Shown here: positions 1-9,536 of the stretch, piece after piece
Layout: each line of letters starts with the position of its first letter
Numbering within the stretch: the first letter of the stretch is position 1
Source: Candidatus Helarchaeota ASGARD archaeon Hel_GB_B
GTDB lineage: Archaea > Asgardarchaeota > Lokiarchaeia > Helarchaeales > HEL-GB-B
Reading direction: 5' to 3'
DNA: 9,733 bases
Assembly: GCA_005191425.1 (NCBI GenBank)
Contig: SUPR01000115.1
Location: forward strand, 1 to 9,733
Made by a program: the position numbers and the translations under genes
Notes under the pieces: generated by a model
What the model saw: the letters and a program-made list of their open reading frames with translations, nothing else
Told to the model about the DNA's origin: nothing
Databases searched by the model: none

Positions 1-381
1 ATTATACGTCCTCCCAAATAACGATTTCTGCACATCATTACACCTACATGTCTGATATCTTGATATGTATTCGTCGTGTAATTTCTTTACAAGTTCGTAT
101 GATTTGAATGGCTTAAATATGTCTTTAAAATCTTTTTTCTCACGTCCAAAAATGAAACTTATCGCTAACGCTCCCCCAATGAGTGCCCCACAACTCCCAT
201 CAGTTGTTAAACCCAGACCATCTGCTAACCCACTAGCTGCTTTAAATACATCCTCACTCCAAATTCCAAGGGCTTCAAAAATAGCTGCTAATGAAGTCTG
301 GGCACATCCTGTACACTTTTGCTCATAAGATTTCCCTAATTCATATGCTTTATTCAAAATCGCCTCTAATGATTCATCCAT
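1..381 (-). CDS. C_GCAxxG_C_C family putative redox-active protein (3' end runs off the window)
   Basis: Not in the ORF track; translated by hand from ATG at 381: MDESLEAILNKAYELGKSYEQKCTGCAQTSLAAIFEALGIWSEDVFKAASGLADGLGLTTDGSCGALIGGALAISF...YQTCRCNDVQKSLFGRTYN. It is open for 127 codons to the window edge. The GCAQ, CGALIGG and CxC motifs are the family signature. GTGAG RBS-like motif at 386-390, 4 nt upstream. Confidence 0.88.
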   Translation of the reverse strand, partial: MDESLEAILNKAYELGKSYEQKCTGCAQTSLAAIFEALGIWSEDVFKAASGLADGLGLTTDGSCGALIGGALAISFIFGREKKDFKDIFKPFKSYELVKKLHDEYISRYQTCRCNDVQKSLFGRTYN

Positions 382-537
382 ATATCTCACTATTATTTTT
401 TAATTAAGAATTTTGATTCTCTTATGCATAATTGTTAATTGCGTTATTCTCATTTAATACCATCAAAAATTATCAAAATTAAACCTTTATTTTCATCTAA
501 ATTTCATAAATTAATGGTAACTTTACATATATTAATT

Positions 538-1609: not shown

Positions 1610-2374
1610 ATGGAAATCTCATTAAAAGAGAAATTAATCAAATATCTTATTATAGACGGAGAATTTTCTTTCATAATAGGAAATGAGATTTATATTTCAA
1701 AACATATTCTACCTATAAAAAAATTTTTTTTGTCAGTTTTAGAACAAAAAGGGGAAGATAGCGGCAAATTTTTACTAGAAATTCTGACCAATCCAAACAT
1801 AGTTATTTTTGGCGGATCGGTCTATTATTTGGAAAAACTAATCAATGTTAAGACCGCTATTCAAAAATTAAAGAGCGAACTCACTAGAAATCTGGATATT
1901 ATTTTAAAAGAAAATAGCGCTTTAATCAATCTATTTAATATTCTAAGTATTAATGATATTATAGAACTCTCTGAAAATGGTATCTCATTCTATTTGTTAG
2001 ATGGGAAATTATACGCTATAAAATACCTCTCAGAATATGTCCAAAAATATAACAATAAAAAATGGAAATTCCCTGGTTGTACTCTTGGCATATATATTGA
2101 TAATCAGTTAAGATTAGGTAATGTCGTAGTATTAAAACCGAAAAACTATATTCATCCATTTGTATATACAACTGGCCCTCCTTACAAAATATGTCTCGGG
2201 ACTTTTTATGATTCATGTGATGCAAAAAAGGTCAAGTCCTTAGCACTTGTGAATTCTTTAATAATGCTATTTATGACTGCGATTCAAATTTTAGTTTCAG
2301 GATATGATAGAAATGTTTCTCCTGCTAATGGTCATTTAACTGACGAAAAATATGATAAATATTTAATAAATTAA
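1610..2374 (+). CDS. Divergent E2/UBC-fold ubiquitin-conjugating-like protein with a ~150-aa N-terminal region of unknown type (254 aa)
   Basis: H182-P-F-V-YTTGPPYK-I-C195-L-G matches the E2 HPN(I/V)...G.ICL motif, with N->F and a 3-residue insertion. Downstream IQILVSGYDRNVSPAN resembles the Rad6/UBE2A IQSLLDEPNPNSPAN segment. Operon context agrees. Confidence 0.75.
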   Translation: MEISLKEKLIKYLIIDGEFSFIIGNEIYISKHILPIKKFFLSVLEQKGEDSGKFLLEILTNPNIVIFGGSVYYLEKLINVKTAIQKLKSELTRNLDIILKENSALINLFNILSINDIIELSENGISFYLLDGKLYAIKYLSEYVQKYNNKKWKFPGCTLGIYIDNQLRLGNVVVLKPKNYIHPFVYTTGPPYKICLGTFYDSCDAKKVKSLALVNSLIMLFMTAIQILVSGYDRNVSPANGHLTDEKYDKYLIN

Positions 2375-2391
2375 TGGACAAATGATATAAA

Positions 2392-3357
2392 ATGGTTAGA
2401 ATAATAAAATCACTGGACGATATATCATCAATTAAAATTAAAAGAGAACCTGATAATTGCCCTGTTGCATTGAAAAAAATAAAAATTACAGACAATGCGT
2501 TGAAAAAATTATTTTTAATGGCTAAAGCTGTTAATGAACATTTAGGGGGATATTACGAAGTATATTGCTTATTATTGGGCGAAGATGATATTATTGAAGA
2601 TATTTATATTCCAGAACAAGAAGCTGGTACTACAAGTGTGAATGTTTCTGAGGATAATTTAATAAAAATTATTAATAATATCGATTCATTAGAAATTACC
2701 AAAAAAATACTGGGCTGGGGGCATTCACATGGTAATTTTTCGGTATTTTCTTCATATACCGATGACCAAAATCATCTAACAATTCTTAACCAAACTTCCA
2801 ATTTCGTGAAAATTAATAATCAAGAAATTAAATTTGCCTATGGCTTAACTGTAAACGTTAAGAAAGAGATTTTTGGAATAGTTATTAGCCAATATACTTG
2901 TGGGGCTATTTTTCAAAGAAAAGGTAATTTCATTTATCTTCGAAACCAAGATAGTTTCGATGAGTTTAGTGAATATAATAATATTTTAGATATTGTTAAA
3001 AAACGAGTGAGAAAATATAATTGGGACCTTATACTTCCAAAAAGAAAAAAATTAATCGACTATTTGAATAATGAAAATGAATTAGACATTTTACATAAGG
3101 GCAACATTTCAATTAATGACCCTGTTTTTACTGATAATAAATCTACAAATTATGAAATCGTTTTTAAAAAGATTGACTTGTATACTTTACAAGATTTGCT
3201 CTCGTCAGATAGAATAACTGAGATGTTATTAAATTATAATCTATTTAAACAAATAGCTATCGAATTTGGTGAAGAAAAATTCAGAGTTTCTTTGTATTCG
3301 ATAATTAATGTGATTAGAAACCAGATAATGCATGAAATTATCGAGTTAAGTCAATAA
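2392..3357 (+). CDS. JAB1/MPN/Mov34 (JAMM, MPN+) metallo-isopeptidase with C-terminal extension (321 aa)
   Basis: Complete JAMM motif: E56 (YEVYCLLLG) and GWG-H111-S-H113-x7-S121-x2-D124. The IEDIYIPEQEAGTTSVNV segment resembles Rpn11 VVDVFAMPQSGTGVSVEA. Confidence 0.93.
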   Translation: MVRIIKSLDDISSIKIKREPDNCPVALKKIKITDNALKKLFLMAKAVNEHLGGYYEVYCLLLGEDDIIEDIYIPEQEAGTTSVNVSEDNLIKIINNIDSLEITKKILGWGHSHGNFSVFSSYTDDQNHLTILNQTSNFVKINNQEIKFAYGLTVNVKKEIFGIVISQYTCGAIFQRKGNFIYLRNQDSFDEFSEYNNILDIVKKRVRKYNWDLILPKRKKLIDYLNNENELDILHKGNISINDPVFTDNKSTNYEIVFKKIDLYTLQDLLSSDRITEMLLNYNLFKQIAIEFGEEKFRVSLYSIINVIRNQIMHEIIELSQ

Positions 3358-3385: not shown

Positions 3386-4276
3386 ATGTCACAAAGTTTA
3401 AGATATGATAGACAAAATCAGATTAAAAAATGGGAACAAAAAAGGTTATTAATTTCAAAAGTATCTGTTATAGGTGCTGGCGCTTTAGGCAATTATGTTT
3501 GTGCTGGGTTAATTGGACTTGGCATCGGAAATATCGAAATTTACGATTTTGATGAAATCGAAATTCATAACCTAAACAGGCAATCAATGTTTACAGAAGA
3601 AGATATTGGTTTTAATAAAGCTGAAATTTTAACAAAGAGATTACAAGAAAGAAATTCAGAGATAAATATACAGGGTTATTCCGAAAAAATCACTGAGAAA
3701 AATATAGCGACCTTATTAAATGATACTGACTTGATAATTGATGCAGTAGATAATATAGAAACTAGAGCTGTTTTGTCAAGATTTTCTCTTATTAAAAATA
3801 TCCCCTTGGTTCACGGTGCTACATCTGCAGATGGTGGACAAATTGCGGTTATAACAAGAGAAACTCCTTGTTTAGAATGCTTTATGAATACCAATAGAAA
3901 AAACAGTTCACAATCGTGTACCGACAATCCTAATCCAAGTGTGGTTTATACAACACAAGTAATTTCCGGACTAATGGTCGAAAATACAAGAATTATACTT
4001 TTACCCCTAAATAAGTTAGAAAAACCAACTCCTCCACTTTTGTATTATGATCTTCTTTCTCCAAATAGGTTTTATCATGTGAATATACAACGTAAGAAAG
4101 ATTGCATTTGCAACGAAATCCTCAAAAACGCTAAATTAGAAAAACCTACTCTGGAAAAAATTAAGGTCGATCTTGATAATAGAGTAATAAACACTGTCGA
4201 AAAAATTGATACTAATAAAAATAACATCTCTAATAAAAAACGTACTCGAAAATTTACATTAAGTGATTTTATATAA
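3386..4276 (+). CDS. ThiF/MoeB/HesA-family E1-like Ubl-activating enzyme with C-terminal tail (296 aa)
   Basis: RYDRQ, G30-AGALG nucleotide loop, DFDEIEIHNLNRQ, DAVDN..TR, C162xxC165, putative catalytic C178 (SQSCT, codon 3917-3919) and C240-x-C242. Confidence 0.95.
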   Translation: MSQSLRYDRQNQIKKWEQKRLLISKVSVIGAGALGNYVCAGLIGLGIGNIEIYDFDEIEIHNLNRQSMFTEEDIGFNKAEILTKRLQERNSEINIQGYSEKITEKNIATLLNDTDLIIDAVDNIETRAVLSRFSLIKNIPLVHGATSADGGQIAVITRETPCLECFMNTNRKNSSQSCTDNPNPSVVYTTQVISGLMVENTRIILLPLNKLEKPTPPLLYYDLLSPNRFYHVNIQRKKDCICNEILKNAKLEKPTLEKIKVDLDNRVINTVEKIDTNKNNISNKKRTRKFTLSDFI

Positions 4277-4751: not shown

Positions 4752-7667
4752 GTGGACAAGTCTGTTAAAGAATTTCCCCTGATTTCAATTAAAAATAGTC
4801 TATTTATTTTGAAACCAAGTAATATTGAATTAAAACATATTATTGATGAATTGAGCGAAAATAATGTAAATAACAGCATTAATAAAATATTAAATGAATT
4901 TCAAAATAAAATTCTTTATAACGGAAAATTCTGGGAATTAGAATACGCAGGCAATCCTTATAAATTCATTGATAACATAAAATCATTCTATTTAAGTAAT
5001 CTTGAAGAAAAGTTCAATTCTATTAATCAATTAATTGCTTTTTTTTCGTCTAATTTGAAGAACATCGAGTTAATGTCTCTTCATAAATTAGGGTTTGTTA
5101 TAATTGACCATATTTTATATATAATTAAAAAAATAATTGATATAAATAAATTGGGCAAAAATAAAATTTTATTGGACGAACCTACTTCTTTTGTAGGAGT
5201 AGAAATTCTTGGAAAAAATAAATTGGGTGATTTAGTATTTCTTGACTCTAAAAACCAATTTAAACCCATTTTTTCTATTAGCTCTTCGAATTTACAATGC
5301 TCTGAAAATGATGATAATATTGATTTTATCATTAGAATTAATAATAGATTAGAAAATGCTACAAAAATTCTAAAAATACTTAGTGAAAAAAATTTCGAGT
5401 CCATTGAAAATAAAATTCTCTATATTGAATCTTGTCTACAGAAAATTGAAAAAAATCCCTCCATGATCACAATTAAAAAAATATTAATACTCGAAGAAGC
5501 ATACGATTTAGCTTATGATACTAAATATTATGATATTATCTATAAAGAACTTCTTAATAATTATTCTTTATTTATTAAAGAGCTACTATCATTAGGTGAA
5601 ATATCCAGATTTTCTCAATTTATTAATAAAATAACAACAAAATATGCTAATACAGTTATGGAACCAATTGTTGATATTGTTATTGAATTTGTAGACTCTA
5701 TTCGTGATATAAATACTGGAATAGATTTCTTAATTAAAATCTTCAATCTCGGTTCTAATACCCAAAAAGCCCTGATAAAAGAAACGATTGCTCAAAAATG
5801 TCATACCCTCCATTCATATTTAATTTCGAAACTTGATTTTTCTAGTATTTCTAATTTGCAACTTAAAATTTCAGAATGTCTATCTTTATCTGAGCAACTA
5901 AATGTTTTATTTGACCTTGCTCATTTAATTTTATCCTCGAAGAAAAATATAAGTCTCGATAATTATATCAATTTACTTGAACTTTATTTAGAAATCGCAA
6001 ATAGTTATAATAATAAATTACCTGTTGATCTAGAACTAAAATTCTACGGGATATACTCTGAAATTAAAGATGAATTATATAATATTTATATTTTAAAAAT
6101 TAAATCTTTAATTGATTCAATAATAAATGATTTACAACTAGATTTTGAGCAAATGGACCAAATTATCCTAAAAGTTCATTCAAATTATACTGATTATTCA
6201 GAATTTGACCGGGTATTGGCGAGATATTTTTATAATACTCTTGAATACATTAAAAATTCTCCAAATATGATATATGATACTTTTATTAAAATCGGAAACT
6301 ATGGAATTGCTATCTGTAAAGGGATATACCGAAAAAAAATAGAATCCCTTATCAAGAGAGAAGTAATTTTCCAATCTTTTTATTCTGAAGGAGTTAAAAA
6401 TCTGAAATTGAAAAATTATGATGTTGCATTAGAAAATCTACGTAGTGCAGCGATAATAAAGCCTAAATATTTCAGAATCTGGTTTTTTATTGGACAGGTA
6501 TATTTCAATCTAAAACTTCATGATAAAGCTAAAAATGCCTTGAAATTGGCTTATAAATATGCTGAATTTGGGGATTATTTTGGGTTATATCAACTTAGTT
6601 TAGTCCTTGAAAATTTAAATGAATATAAATATTCTCTCAACATTATTTACAGGTTATTAAAATCAAATCGCAACGATCATGAGGTATATGACCTTTTAAC
6701 AAAAATAAGCTGGAAATTAAAAAATTATGCGTTAATGTTTTTTTCGATTCATTTAACTATTAAAAGTTTAATTCAAAATTATCAACAAAATCTTCTATTA
6801 TCCACCGATTTAGATACTTATTGGCAATATTCTTTTGGAATGATTAATGAATTTATTTCAAGTCAAATTTATGCTAATAATCGGACCAAAAGACCGACAA
6901 AAGGAATCAAAAAAATTATGGTCAATACTCTTCATAAAATTGGTTCGGAATTAATTATTGTTGAGGAATTTGATAAAATATTTGATGTATATAAAATATT
7001 GAAAAAATTTAAGTGTAAAATAAAAGGGAACTTATCGAATTATTTATTTAAGAAGTTTGAAAATCTTGGTGTTTCATTTCACAAAAGAAATCAATTTATA
7101 TCAGCTCTTAAATATTATAATGAACTCATATATCTTAACCCAAGTCATGTTAATTCATACATTAAGATAGGAATTTGCTATATTCATTTAGAAAAATACC
7201 GGGACGCTCTTATTATATTTAAATTTGCTAATAAGTTAGCCCCTAATAATATTCAAATTTTAAATAATCTTGCTATTTTATATTATAATAAAGGTTTATA
7301 TGAAAAATGTTATTCAATATTACAAAAAGTGCTGGAAATTGACCCTACATATTTCATTGTTTATTACAATTTATCATTAGTCTCAATTAAAAAGGGCGAT
7401 TTTAAAAATGCTATTATAGTATATCTTAAATATTTGCAATTACAATACAATGAGAATAAAAATGTAGATTTTATAATAGATTTACTTCAAAAATGTGTCC
7501 TTCAAAAACAATTTGATGAGGAATTATTTAACCAAATTTTAGAATTTTTCACATTTATTGATGATTATGATGGGGTTTATGATAAAAATAAGTTATTTAA
7601 TACATTAATAAATTCTAATATAGATTTGAAATTTAAGGTGCAATTAAAGAAATTAAAAGCATTGTAA
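4752..7667 (+). CDS. 971-aa protein: N-terminal paralogue of the E2-like protein (aa ~1-210), helical middle, two TPR clusters
   Basis: GTG start. TPR consensus repeats at aa ~544-660 (e.g. IWFFIGQVYFNLKLHDKAKNALKLA) and ~769-900 (e.g. ILNNLAILYYNKGLYEKCYSILQKVLEIDP). Manual alignment of aa 52-183 to aa 63-195 of ORF 1610-2374 gives 35 identities with three 1-residue gaps. Confidence 0.88.
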   Translation: MDKSVKEFPLISIKNSLFILKPSNIELKHIIDELSENNVNNSINKILNEFQNKILYNGKFWELEYAGNPYKFIDNIKSFYLSNLEEKFNSINQLIAFFSSNLKNIELMSLHKLGFVIIDHILYIIKKIIDINKLGKNKILLDEPTSFVGVEILGKNKLGDLVFLDSKNQFKPIFSISSSNLQCSENDDNIDFIIRINNRLENATKILKILSEKNFESIENKILYIESCLQKIEKNPSMITIKKILILEEAYDLAYDTKYYDIIYKELLNNYSLFIKELLSLGEISRFSQFINKITTKYANTVMEPIVDIVIEFVDSIRDINTGIDFLIKIFNLGSNTQKALIKETIAQKCHTLHSYLISKLDFSSISNLQLKISECLSLSEQLNVLFDLAHLILSSKKNISLDNYINLLELYLEIANSYNNKLPVDLELKFYGIYSEIKDELYNIYILKIKSLIDSIINDLQLDFEQMDQIILKVHSNYTDYSEFDRVLARYFYNTLEYIKNSPNMIYDTFIKIGNYGIAICKGIYRKKIESLIKREVIFQSFYSEGVKNLKLKNYDVALENLRSAAIIKPKYFRIWFFIGQVYFNLKLHDKAKNALKLAYKYAEFGDYFGLYQLSLVLENLNEYKYSLNIIYRLLKSNRNDHEVYDLLTKISWKLKNYALMFFSIHLTIKSLIQNYQQNLLLSTDLDTYWQYSFGMINEFISSQIYANNRTKRPTKGIKKIMVNTLHKIGSELIIVEEFDKIFDVYKILKKFKCKIKGNLSNYLFKKFENLGVSFHKRNQFISALKYYNELIYLNPSHVNSYIKIGICYIHLEKYRDALIIFKFANKLAPNNIQILNNLAILYYNKGLYEKCYSILQKVLEIDPTYFIVYYNLSLVSIKKGDFKNAIIVYLKYLQLQYNENKNVDFIIDLLQKCVLQKQFDEELFNQILEFFTFIDDYDGVYDKNKLFNTLINSNIDLKFKVQLKKLKAL

Positions 7668-7781: not shown

Positions 7782-9536
7782 TCAACTACCATTCATATCC
7801 AAATAATTTAAAGAAAATTCTCTTATTATTTTTTCAATTTCAGTTTTTGAGTTTATTATTTTATCAATAGTAGTGTAATTCTCGTCTTTATTATGTTTTA
7901 GTAGCAATATTCTATGGGTGCAATTTTTCAAGGCCTCTGCATTATGTGTAGCGATAATTATTGTGGTATTAAAGTCGGAATTAATTTTGACAAGAAAATT
8001 TGTAATTTTTCGGGTGATAATTGGTTCTAAATCTCCAAATGGTTCATCTAACAATAATATTTCCGGCTTAGACAATAATTGAAGTATTAATGCAATTCTG
8101 ACTTTCTCACCCCAAGATAGCTCTTTTGTTCTGCGTTCTAATATATCAATTTCTAGTTCAAACTCATTAAAGAGAGGTGTTATTATTTTTTCATAAGCTT
8201 CAAAAGAAGGTATTGGAAACAAATCTCTAATTAATCGGTGATCGAGCCCCAATTTTTCTAATTTAGCATTCACTTCGTATAATGGTAAATCACCCAATCT
8301 AGACATAATATCAACAATGTTTTCTTTAATTCCAAGTTTTTTTGCTTTTTTAATCGCATTATGTATTGCAGTTTCTCCTTTTAAACCCATTTTACTCAGA
8401 ATCAAATCTTTTACATTAGCATAATATTCTAAATCAAGTTCTTGATGCATCAAATTTATTTTATTTCTGACCTTCATAGCTATTTGGCTTAAATTATAAA
8501 TATTGACTAATTTATCTGAATGATAAAAGATTTTTCCATGTTTAATCATTTCTACTCCCGCAAGGATTCTTAACAACACAGTTTTTCCAATCCCAGAACG
8601 CCCTAAAATCCCTAAAATTTCTCCTTTGAATATTTCCAATTTGGGGATCTTAAGCGAGAAAATCTTTTTTATTTTTGGAGAATAATAGGTGTGATCAAGG
8701 TCTTCAATTGACATAATAACTTTTTTCTTAGAAAATGATGGTAATTTGATTGAAGGTATAAGGACTTGCGAAATTTTATTACTAAATCCTTCAGGTTTCA
8801 CAATATCTTTAATAATGCCATGTTCTAAAATTGCAATTCTATCACAAATAGATTCAAGGATAATTGGGATATGTGAAGTAATTATAACAGTAATTTCGTT
8901 TTCTTTTGCTATTTTTTTAATATATTTAATTGAAATATTCTTTAATTCTGTATCTGACATTGTTAATGGTTCGTCTAAAAGCAAGAGTTGGAGATTATGC
9001 CCTACAAGAGCTAATTGGCGTGCTAATACTAGCCGTTGTTTTTCACCGCCACTTAATATTCCTGAAAACCATTCGGCTTTTTGGTCCAATCCTACAATTT
9101 TTAGAAGATAGAGTGCCTTCTTTTTCATTTTATTGTATTCATCACTTTCCAAATCGGGCAGGTCAACAAGTTCAGACCCATAGGTAATAACATTTAATCT
9201 TCTCATAACATTATGCAATACCGAATCTGCCCATAACCCAAAATTCCGCTGTAAATGGATTGAAGAAATTGTCTTTAATTTATGGACATCTAATTTATTA
9301 GTTTTACCACCTGAAAAAAGGTTGATCCCGTTGATCCTTACTGTTCCTTCATTAAAGTTCTCTACACCACGTAGAATGCGTACTAATGTAGTCTTCCCAG
9401 CCCCCGACTTTCCGAATAGCCCAAAAAATTCCCCTTTTGCTATTTTTAAATTGATATTCTTTAAAGCAGTAATTATTTTTCCATTAGATAATTTATATTT
9501 TTTAGTTAAATTGCTAATCTCGATGAAATATTCCAT
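7782..9536 (-). CDS. Tandem (double) ABC-family ATPase resembling methyl-coenzyme M reductase system component A2 (AtwA), 584 aa
   Basis: Two NBDs. NBD1: GKSGAGKT, LSGGEKQR, LLLLDE, TSH. NBD2: GRSGIGKT, LSWGEKVR, LLLDE, ATH. IHLQRNFGLW, KQRLVLARQLA and MHQELDL resemble AtwA LQRTFALY, KQRVVLARQLA and LHQEYDL (recalled from memory). No TM segments and no permease gene in the window. Confidence 0.8.
   Translation of the reverse strand: MEYFIEISNLTKKYKLSNGKIITALKNINLKIAKGEFFGLFGKSGAGKTTLVRILRGVENFNEGTVRINGINLFSGGKTNKLDVHKLKTISSIHLQRNFGLWADSVLHNVMRRLNVITYGSELVDLPDLESDEYNKMKKKALYLLKIVGLDQKAEWFSGILSGGEKQRLVLARQLALVGHNLQLLLLDEPLTMSDTELKNISIKYIKKIAKENEITVIITSHIPIILESICDRIAILEHGIIKDIVKPEGFSNKISQVLIPSIKLPSFSKKKVIMSIEDLDHTYYSPKIKKIFSLKIPKLEIFKGEILGILGRSGIGKTVLLRILAGVEMIKHGKIFYHSDKLVNIYNLSQIAMKVRNKINLMHQELDLEYYANVKDLILSKMGLKGETAIHNAIKKAKKLGIKENIVDIMSRLGDLPLYEVNAKLEKLGLDHRLIRDLFPIPSFEAYEKIITPLFNEFELEIDILERRTKELSWGEKVRIALILQLLSKPEILLLDEPFGDLEPIITRKITNFLVKINSDFNTTIIIATHNAEALKNCTHRILLLKHNKDENYTTIDKIINSKTEIEKIIREFSLNYLDMNGS

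Follow-up and report, generated by a model that had tools for sequence, protein, structure and literature searches.

Several described systems resemble the locus analysed in the present work. Bacterial BilABCD operons (types I/II; 6C/CEHH) encode a ubiquitin-like protein (Ubl), an E2, a JAB protease and an E1 in that order, with a pro-tail on the Ubl, no E3 gene and reported dimerization of the E2, BilB, and they form isopeptides between the Ubl and lysine without an E3 (bioRxiv 2023.09.26.559546). Operons of type 6D are likewise organized around a stand-alone E2 (Prok-E2_D; PRTRC protein B, PF14460) that is accompanied by a Ubl, a JAB protein, an E1 and a helical accessory gene. The 6D E2s are described as being without the classical His and as having an invariant His C-terminal to the Cys (PMC1779556). 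Canonical E2s of the UQ_con family (PF00179), which include UbcH5/UBE2D, Rad6/UBE2A-B, Pex4, UBE2S and the HPN E2s of Asgard archaea, have a His-Pro before the catalytic Cys and a Pro at the Ser/Asp-Pro site, and the UEV pseudo-E2s (Mms2/UEV1, Vps23/TSG101, Asgard UEV-Vps23) are derived from E2s, are without the catalytic Cys and the C-terminal elements, and are fused to an interaction domain. The catalytic role of the HPN Asn is disputed, the residue being possibly structural, and UFC1, which has a TAK motif and no HPN, still transfers its modifier via lysine attack (PMC12032130), while the loss of both the Asn and the Ser/Asp site has been linked to non-canonical E2 families (PMC4604453).

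The DNA analysed here, referred to as the window, is a whole contig of 9,733 nucleotides from a genome of 3,543,077 bases in 182 contigs, the Helarchaeota bin Hel_GB_B, which has been described as 3.54 Mb in 182 scaffolds with 28% GC (PMC6478937). Sequencing runs listed as containing this genome are hydrothermal-vent metagenomes, and none of those listed is an RNA run. Six closely spaced genes on the + strand of the window encode a Ubl candidate, an E2-like protein, a JAB/JAMM metallopeptidase, a ThiF-type E1, an accessory protein of 143 residues and a TPR protein of 971 residues (Table 1). The second of these genes encodes a predicted E2 of an uncatalogued archaeal family, which is probably active.

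Table 1. Features of the operon and of its E2-like protein, in nucleotide positions of the window
Feature	Position	Strand	Remarks
Ubl candidate, 103 aa	1271..1582	+	ends Gly101-Gly102-Asn (one-residue pro-tail)
E2-like (UBC-fold) enzyme, uncatalogued family, 254 aa	1610..2374	+	
N-terminal module, residues 1-102	1610..1915	+	two helix/beta-hairpin units, then a ~30-residue helix
UBC/E2 domain, residues ~103-254, including C-terminal helix region	1916..2371	+	VIA Z 8.2, 4.1 Å over 130 residues (Pex4p); Z 8.4 (UBE2S)
Y180-x-H182-P183-F184, the family's HPN replacement	2147..2161	+	Y 96/99, H 96/99, P 92/99, F 80/99, N 0/99
HPFV, from H182	2153..2164	+	
C195, predicted catalytic cysteine, in ICLG	2192..2194	+	99/99; paired with the catalytic Cys of the Asgard HPN E2s when profiles are aligned (not significant)
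G231-Y232...S237-P238-A-N loop	2300..2329	+	family-specific GY and general E2 Ser/Asp-Pro site; G231 96/99, Y232 90/99, P238 90/99, S237 19/99
SPAN, residues 237-240	2318..2329	+	12/99
JAB/JAMM metallopeptidase	2392..3357	+	HSH-x7-S-x2-D intact; Pfam JAB E 0.002, below cut-off
Single-domain ThiF/MoeB-type E1	3386..4276	+	GAGALG, C162xxC165, predicted catalytic C178; Pfam ThiF E 1e-55
Accessory gene, conserved, 143 aa	4301..4732	+	homologue in locus L001, E 8e-10; no Pfam match
Pseudo-E2-TPR fusion, 971 aa	4752..7667	+	TPRs at ~552-604 and 775-899; Pfam TPR_2 E 9e-19 and others
Pseudo-E2, TPR-protein residues ~9-212	4776..5387	+	copy of E2 residues 19-233; KPI for HPF, no conserved Cys

The assignment of this protein to the E2 enzymes, which had been proposed in an initial annotation of the DNA, depends on motifs, on fold and on gene context. 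The positions that were given there for HPFV, for C195 within ICLG and for SPAN, which lies in the segment IQILVSGYDRNVSPAN at residues 225-240, are all correct. Homologues were gathered into an alignment of 99 sequences, to which the conservation counts refer, and C195 is its sole invariant column, so the conservation of this residue among homologues, named in the annotation as a check, is complete. Y180, H182, P183, G231, Y232 and P238 are each conserved in more than 90% of the sequences, and no His after C195 reaches 90%.

The AlphaFold2 model of the protein has a mean pLDDT of 91.2 and a pTM of 0.67, and it contains a helix, a four-stranded meander, a flap that bears the Cys, and crossing helices. 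Pex4p is the best VIA match among 48,161 PDB representatives, and about 49 of the best 50 rows of this first structural search are of UBC, UEV or RWD type, aligned over residues ~103-253; the UBC fold that the annotation had suggested looking for in a model is therefore present. The best 50 rows of a second structural search are all of these types, with UBE2S and Rad6 (Z 7.4-7.8) within about one unit of each other. The rows listed for the first search include BubB (Z 6.5) and Cap2 (Z 5.4), and BilB is not among them. The structural scores are middling (Z ~8, rmsd ~4 Å), and when the full model is submitted to Foldseek, E2s dominate the top of a list whose best E is 0.033 and which holds no match with E<=0.001. 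Because the structural list is uniform, because an invariant Cys follows the His-Pro, and because of the gene context, the E2 assignment is nonetheless strong.

The sequence itself matches no catalogued family. Scanning the E2 and sets of 18 or 99 homologues against Pfam, NCBIfam and PADLOC yields no significant family, a PDB sequence search with the E2 profile returns nothing, and the UQ_con model leaves the query unmatched and reaches an E of 0.089 for the best of the 99 members. When the source genome is searched with PF00179, three other genes are recovered, two of them with HPN, and the gene for the 254-residue E2 is not among them. A profile alignment against 15 Asgard HPN E2s pairs HPF with HPN and the two Cys residues with each other, but it is not significant (P 3%, E 0.014), and one of 20 shuffles scored better. 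The protein has in common with canonical E2s the fold (Z 7.4-8.4), to which the C-terminal helix region belongs, the His-Pro and the Pro at the Ser/Asp-Pro site; it differs from them in having Phe for Asn, a conserved Tyr180 and Gly231-Tyr232, an extra beta-hairpin at residues 143-154, an N-terminal module of ~100 residues and an identity of only 9-17%, as well as a Ubl, an E1 and a JAMM protease of its own in an operon which has no RING gene. The nearest named family by language-model features is Prok-E2_D (0.88, 169 common features), which can be taken as a lead only: in contrast to the description of that family, the classical His is kept in 96 of the 99 sequences, the downstream His242 is found in only 38, and PF14460 has no match among the 99 members or at the E2 gene in five genomes. 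Unlike BilB with its His151, the family conserves no His downstream of the Cys, and it keeps the C-terminal E2 elements. The protein belongs to the UBC fold, yet it does not show the features that define UQ_con E2s, Prok-E2_D or BilB. The literature searched, which included few subscription papers, holds no description of this E2 family, and since the family is missed by Pfam, NCBIfam and PADLOC, surveys of Asgard ubiquitin systems that are based on UQ_con would overlook what is proposed below to be a whole second conjugation pathway.

The domain boundaries bear on the claim of the annotation that the protein begins with an uncharacterized region of ~150 residues. Because the UBC fold starts at about residue 103, the last part of the claimed region, residues 103-150, already belongs to the E2 and forms its first helix and strands, and the extra module is reduced to ~100 residues. 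This N-terminal module folds confidently alone (AF2 pLDDT 85.7). Its best VIA match in the PDB has a Z of 4.9, which is helical-hairpin noise, and Foldseek gives no match with E<=0.001; this lack of a match is not proof of a new fold. Rows for type III chaperones were weak (E>=0.15) and were rejected. The two helix/hairpin units align with each other as an internal repeat (HHalign P 65%, E 6e-5), which suggests that they are probably the products of an internal duplication; a third unit, sought in the first hairpin of the UBC domain, was rejected (P 4%). The module is covered by 48 of the 99 aligned homologues, and the longer relatives carry other, longer extensions.

The SPAN sequence had been singled out as eukaryote-style, since it follows the penultimate helix in Rad6/UBE2A-B, UBE2G1 and Cdc34. 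It occurs 3 times in the 960,381 residues of long open reading frames of the source genome (~0.0008 per 254-residue protein), so its position in the E2 is not due to chance. S237-P238 corresponds to the Ser/Asp-Pro (CES/D) site of E2s, an equivalence which rests on a weak profile alignment, and the site residue is Ser in 19, Asn in 18 and Thr in 12 of the 99 sequences, while the following Pro is kept in 90. Canonical Asgard E2s read [S/D]PLN at this site, those of the source genome itself reading SPLN and DPLN. Since only the Pro is conserved, and since the canonical Asgard E2s too have a Ser/Asp-Pro at the site, SPAN is best regarded as a freely drifting inherited E2 feature and not as a eukaryotic signature; a special kinship with Rad6 was also rejected because the Rad6 scores are tied with those of other E2s.

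The HPF motif, by contrast with SPAN, is on the evidence of the alignment a true signature of the family: the residues found in place of F184 include Tyr, His, Ala, Leu and Cys, and Asn is found in none of the sequences. The distance from the His to the Cys is 13 in this E2, and it is 10 in UbcH5, so the three extra residues that the annotation had remarked upon are real, but they mean little, because the distance ranges from 10 to 18 within the family (exactly 10 in 28 of 96) and from 9 to 17 among canonical Asgard E2s. The points stressed in the annotation are thus mostly ordinary, and the interest of the protein lies instead in the uncatalogued HPF family, in the unmatched 100-residue module and in the recurrent pseudo-E2-TPR partner described below.

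It had also been argued that the loss of the Asn may signify a different chemistry. One form of this argument is that C195 is charged but passes the Ubl to another Cys, or to acceptors other than Lys, so that the E2 acts as a relay or forms ester or N-terminal linkages as UBE2J and UBE2W do. Given the complete absence of the Asn, such chemistry is possible, and a further hint in that direction is the lack of conservation at the Ser/Asp site (cf. PMC4604453); in addition, the conserved Tyr232 near the active-site loop could be an acceptor or a catalyst, and Bub systems use Tyr/Ser oxyesters (PMC11601596). The argument is nevertheless weakly founded, because UFC1 modifies lysine without an HPN and because the Asn is perhaps structural (PMC12032130). 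BilB (Cys138, downstream His151) makes Lys isopeptides (bioRxiv 2023.09.26.559546), and the pseudo-E2 of the operon has no conserved Cys that could receive the Ubl in a relay. Relay or non-lysine chemistry is on balance unlikely. Discharge onto lysine is the preferred reading, and F184 together with the family-specific G231-Y232 probably takes over the loop bracing which the HPN Asn provides elsewhere. A natural His-Pro-Phe E2 family is a ready test of the debated function, catalytic or structural, of the HPN Asn.

The neighbouring genes suggest the pathway in which the E2 acts. The ATG start of the Ubl was picked with the aid of the homologue in locus L001, the list of open reading frames offering also an upstream TTG at 1214. 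Among 20 homologues of the Ubl, G102 is invariant and G101 is at least 90% conserved, and the tails have 0 to ~25 residues; neither Pfam nor the PDB, which was searched also with the Ubl profile, contains a sequence match, and the beta-grasp fold of the protein is a candidate assignment read from its pattern of strands and helix and from context. The JAMM motif is kept in all 16 operon homologues, and the equivalent of C178 in all 14 single-domain operon E1s. The ThiF domain of the E1 is single, spanning residues 8-240 of 296. Genes similar to the accessory gene come after the E1 in most loci.

The catalytic steps can be proposed from homology. The JAMM protease would trim the terminal Asn of the Ubl to expose the Gly-Gly, the ThiF-type E1 would adenylate the Ubl and take it on C178, and the Ubl would then pass by transthiolation from the E1 to C195 of the E2, which would hand it on, most likely to lysines in its targets, with the JAMM protease reversing the modification. 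The N-terminal module of the E2 with its long helix may serve as a protein-interaction arm, and the pseudo-E2-TPR protein as an optional partner that recruits the substrate. Because the source genome has separate HPN E2s, such a pathway would be a second, RING-free one beside the canonical Asgard ubiquitin system, and it is likely that the gene encodes the active E2 of this second pathway. Elsewhere in the genome a canonical HPN E2 lies beside a gene of UEV type that is without the Cys and has a coiled-coil tail (G000:C128:58831-61639; loci L041 and L043), a pair which is probably the known Ub-ESCRT cluster.

Since the E1 has a single ThiF/MoeB domain and its best NCBIfam matches are ThiF and MoeB, all below the cut-off, the cluster might instead transfer sulfur in the manner of ThiS or MoaD thiocarboxylates, for a cofactor or for tRNA thiolation, with the UBC-like protein as a persulfide carrier. 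This is very improbable: the Ubl and the E1 are in every case separated by a protein of UBC fold whose Cys is invariant, C178 of the E1 is conserved, and no gene for a rhodanese, a cysteine desulfurase, ThiG or MoaE was recognized in the loci that were read.

The last gene of the operon is relevant to the question of specificity. The annotation had noted a region common to the E2 and the TPR protein, which it considered to be the N-terminal region of the E2 and possibly a new dimerization or E1-docking module. The common region is real. Pairwise BLASTP between the two proteins gives an E of only 0.26, but orthologues of the TPR-protein N-terminus occupy the same operon position in other loci, either fused to TPRs (L001) or standing alone (L028, L029), and their profile aligns with the E2 family with an HHalign P of 96.5% and an E of 9e-10. 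When the whole genome is searched with the pseudo-E2 profile, the E2 is the second-best match (E 4e-6). With six pseudo-E2 copies, from six loci, the alignment spans E2 residues 19-233 (P 96.2%), and the signal comes from the UBC core (P 93.9%, E 1.5e-7, as against E>=0.17 for shuffled controls), the N-terminal module alone having no significant, correctly placed match to the pseudo-E2. The proposed module is without a structural match, but the part that the two proteins have in common is a nearly complete, dead E2. The six copies have KPI, RPL or TPV instead of HPF, and neither the segment with the Cys nor the GY...P tail is retained. By these sequence criteria, residues 9-212 of the TPR protein are a UEV-like pseudo-E2, a dead duplicate of the E2. 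It differs from known UEVs in being derived from this E2 family, in being fused to TPRs, and in sharing an operon with its active twin.

The pseudo-E2-TPR architecture recurs in L001, in L002/L003, where the fusion lies directly upstream of the E2, and in L090, where it occurs in trans in genome G133. The proteins of L090 (5092-8673) and L002 (6520-9837) have 1100-1200 residues and are related to each other (E 5e-13), and the latter, near a TBP gene, lies just upstream of an E2 for which neither a Ubl nor a JAB nor an E1 is encoded within 10 kb. Pseudo-E2s were found with the 4-sequence profile in 3 of 400 Asgard genomes, and with another profile in G133, as against 21 genomes with the E2; the far greater rarity of the pseudo-E2 suggests that it may not be needed, although a protein so divergent may also be missed by searches. 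No shorter homologues of the TPR-protein N-terminus were found, and single-protein matches in family f6 (E>2e-4, several with stops) were rejected as noise.

Structure prediction for the complex of the E2 and the pseudo-E2 gives a score of 0.58, compared with 0.00 for the best control, with at least 73% contact agreement between runs and a partner pLDDT of at least 55. Of 80 solved complexes, 58 reach the mark applied to such predictions, as do 2 of 110 mismatched pairs, but those that reach it at 0.60 or under comprise only 7 of the 80 solved complexes and both of the mismatches, so that the predicted pairing is a weakly supported lead and not proof. In this lineage, the dead E2 duplicate fused to TPRs is a candidate for the partner and substrate receptor of the active E2, a role which we propose tentatively. 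It is more doubtful whether the second Asgard pathway as a whole obtains its specificity in this way, with the pseudo-E2-TPR protein paired with the HPF E2 and the TPRs bringing the substrate, which would amount to an independent invention of a Ubc13-Mms2-like pair joined to a substrate receptor, possibly with non-lysine chemistry. The architecture does suggest a way in which targets could be chosen in a pathway that has no RING E3s.

The distribution of the family is patchy at large and stable within certain groups. Members occur in 21 of the 400 Asgard genomes, namely in 11 of 14 genomes of family f5, 5 of 5 of f25, 2 of 7 of f24, Borrarchaeum and one more, and in 17 of 61 small-genome archaea related to another carrier, which to judge from their size and neighbours appear to be of DPANN type, with at most 4 copies each; in 6 other genomes of the same order as the source, a search with this query found no such E2. 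Proteins that resemble the E2 in structure are present in bacterial clusters as well. The operon is present in two complete, single-contig genomes (G142, 4.32 Mb; G137, 6.04 Mb). The order Ubl-E2-JAB-E1 is found in the window and in L001, L028, L029, L045, L049 and L085-L089, and Ubl-JAB-E2-E1 in L047. Family f5 has E2-JAB-E1-accessory, and in 5 of 5 genomes tested its Ubl is encoded elsewhere. The E2 of L002 has no Ubl, JAB or E1 nearby, the adjacent JAB is absent from L022, and tandem E1 domains appear only in distant relatives (DPANN-type, f24/f25).

This distribution bears on whether the operon might serve in antiviral defence, in the manner of Bil systems, by tagging the proteins of virions. 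The gene order is that of BilABCD (bioRxiv 2023.09.26.559546), and bacterial systems of equal layout having already been characterized tempers the novelty of the locus, as does the want of a special eukaryotic signal in SPAN. The patchiness, the absence from the 6 genomes of the same order and the four copies in one small genome would also fit defence, and there are uncharacterized phage proteins of similar fold. The locus differs from BilABCD, however, in its single-domain ThiF E1, in its pseudo-E2-TPR partner and in having no defence-island context that could be seen; its neighbours are housekeeping genes, it is stable in whole families (f5, f25), and the f5 Ubl sits apart, by eye beside cyclophilin-like and RIO-kinase-like genes. 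PADLOC recognizes none of the Ubl, E2, JAB and accessory proteins and sees only a generic E1 domain, and neither tblastn against phages and plasmids nor a scan of viral contigs found a relative by sequence. A defence function accordingly appears improbable, and conjugation in a second cellular Ubl pathway is preferred.

Several features of the related loci and of the window were observed in passing. In four f5 loci (L092-L095) the detached Ubl is present in one or two copies, often near the cyclophilin-like and RIO-kinase-like genes, and in nearly all f5 loci a conserved gene of ~225 codons with C-terminal zinc-ribbon motifs (L019:7171-7845 and its equivalents in L020-L026, L030 and L031) is divergent from the E2 and may encode a regulator or a partner. 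Genome G133 (C136) has tandem E2 paralogues (L027:4815-6478), both with His-Met-Phe for His-Pro-Phe; after them come, in this order, a JAB-like gene in which no metal motif is obvious, the active JAB and the E1. A dUTPase/dCTP-deaminase fusion gene lies between the Ubl and the E2 in L048 (3134-4267), and the 1.4-Mb genome G400 (L045, L103) has four copies of the E2 family, two of them on one contig. In f25 (L086:1411-5617, L087:10465-14578 and L089) the operon adjoins a conserved gene cluster that encodes a beta-propeller protein of FG-GAP/BBS-like type as well as a protein of 450 residues which has a faint match to UFL1 (E3_UFM1_ligase, E 0.009).

Within the window, the minus strand encodes a double ABC-ATPase (7782-9536) with no membrane partner in the window; in NCBIfam it matches methyl-coenzyme M reductase component A2 best (below the cut-off, at E 5e-66), which fits an MCR-bearing Helarchaeon, an mcrA-like gene being present in the source genome. 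At the other end, a gene for a putative C_GCAxxG_C_C redox protein (1-390, minus strand), truncated by the end of the contig, is divergent from the operon and is separated from it by ~880 AT-rich bases (18-24% GC) that contain a short direct repeat resembling TAATCCAATAAAAATAG at ~537-571.
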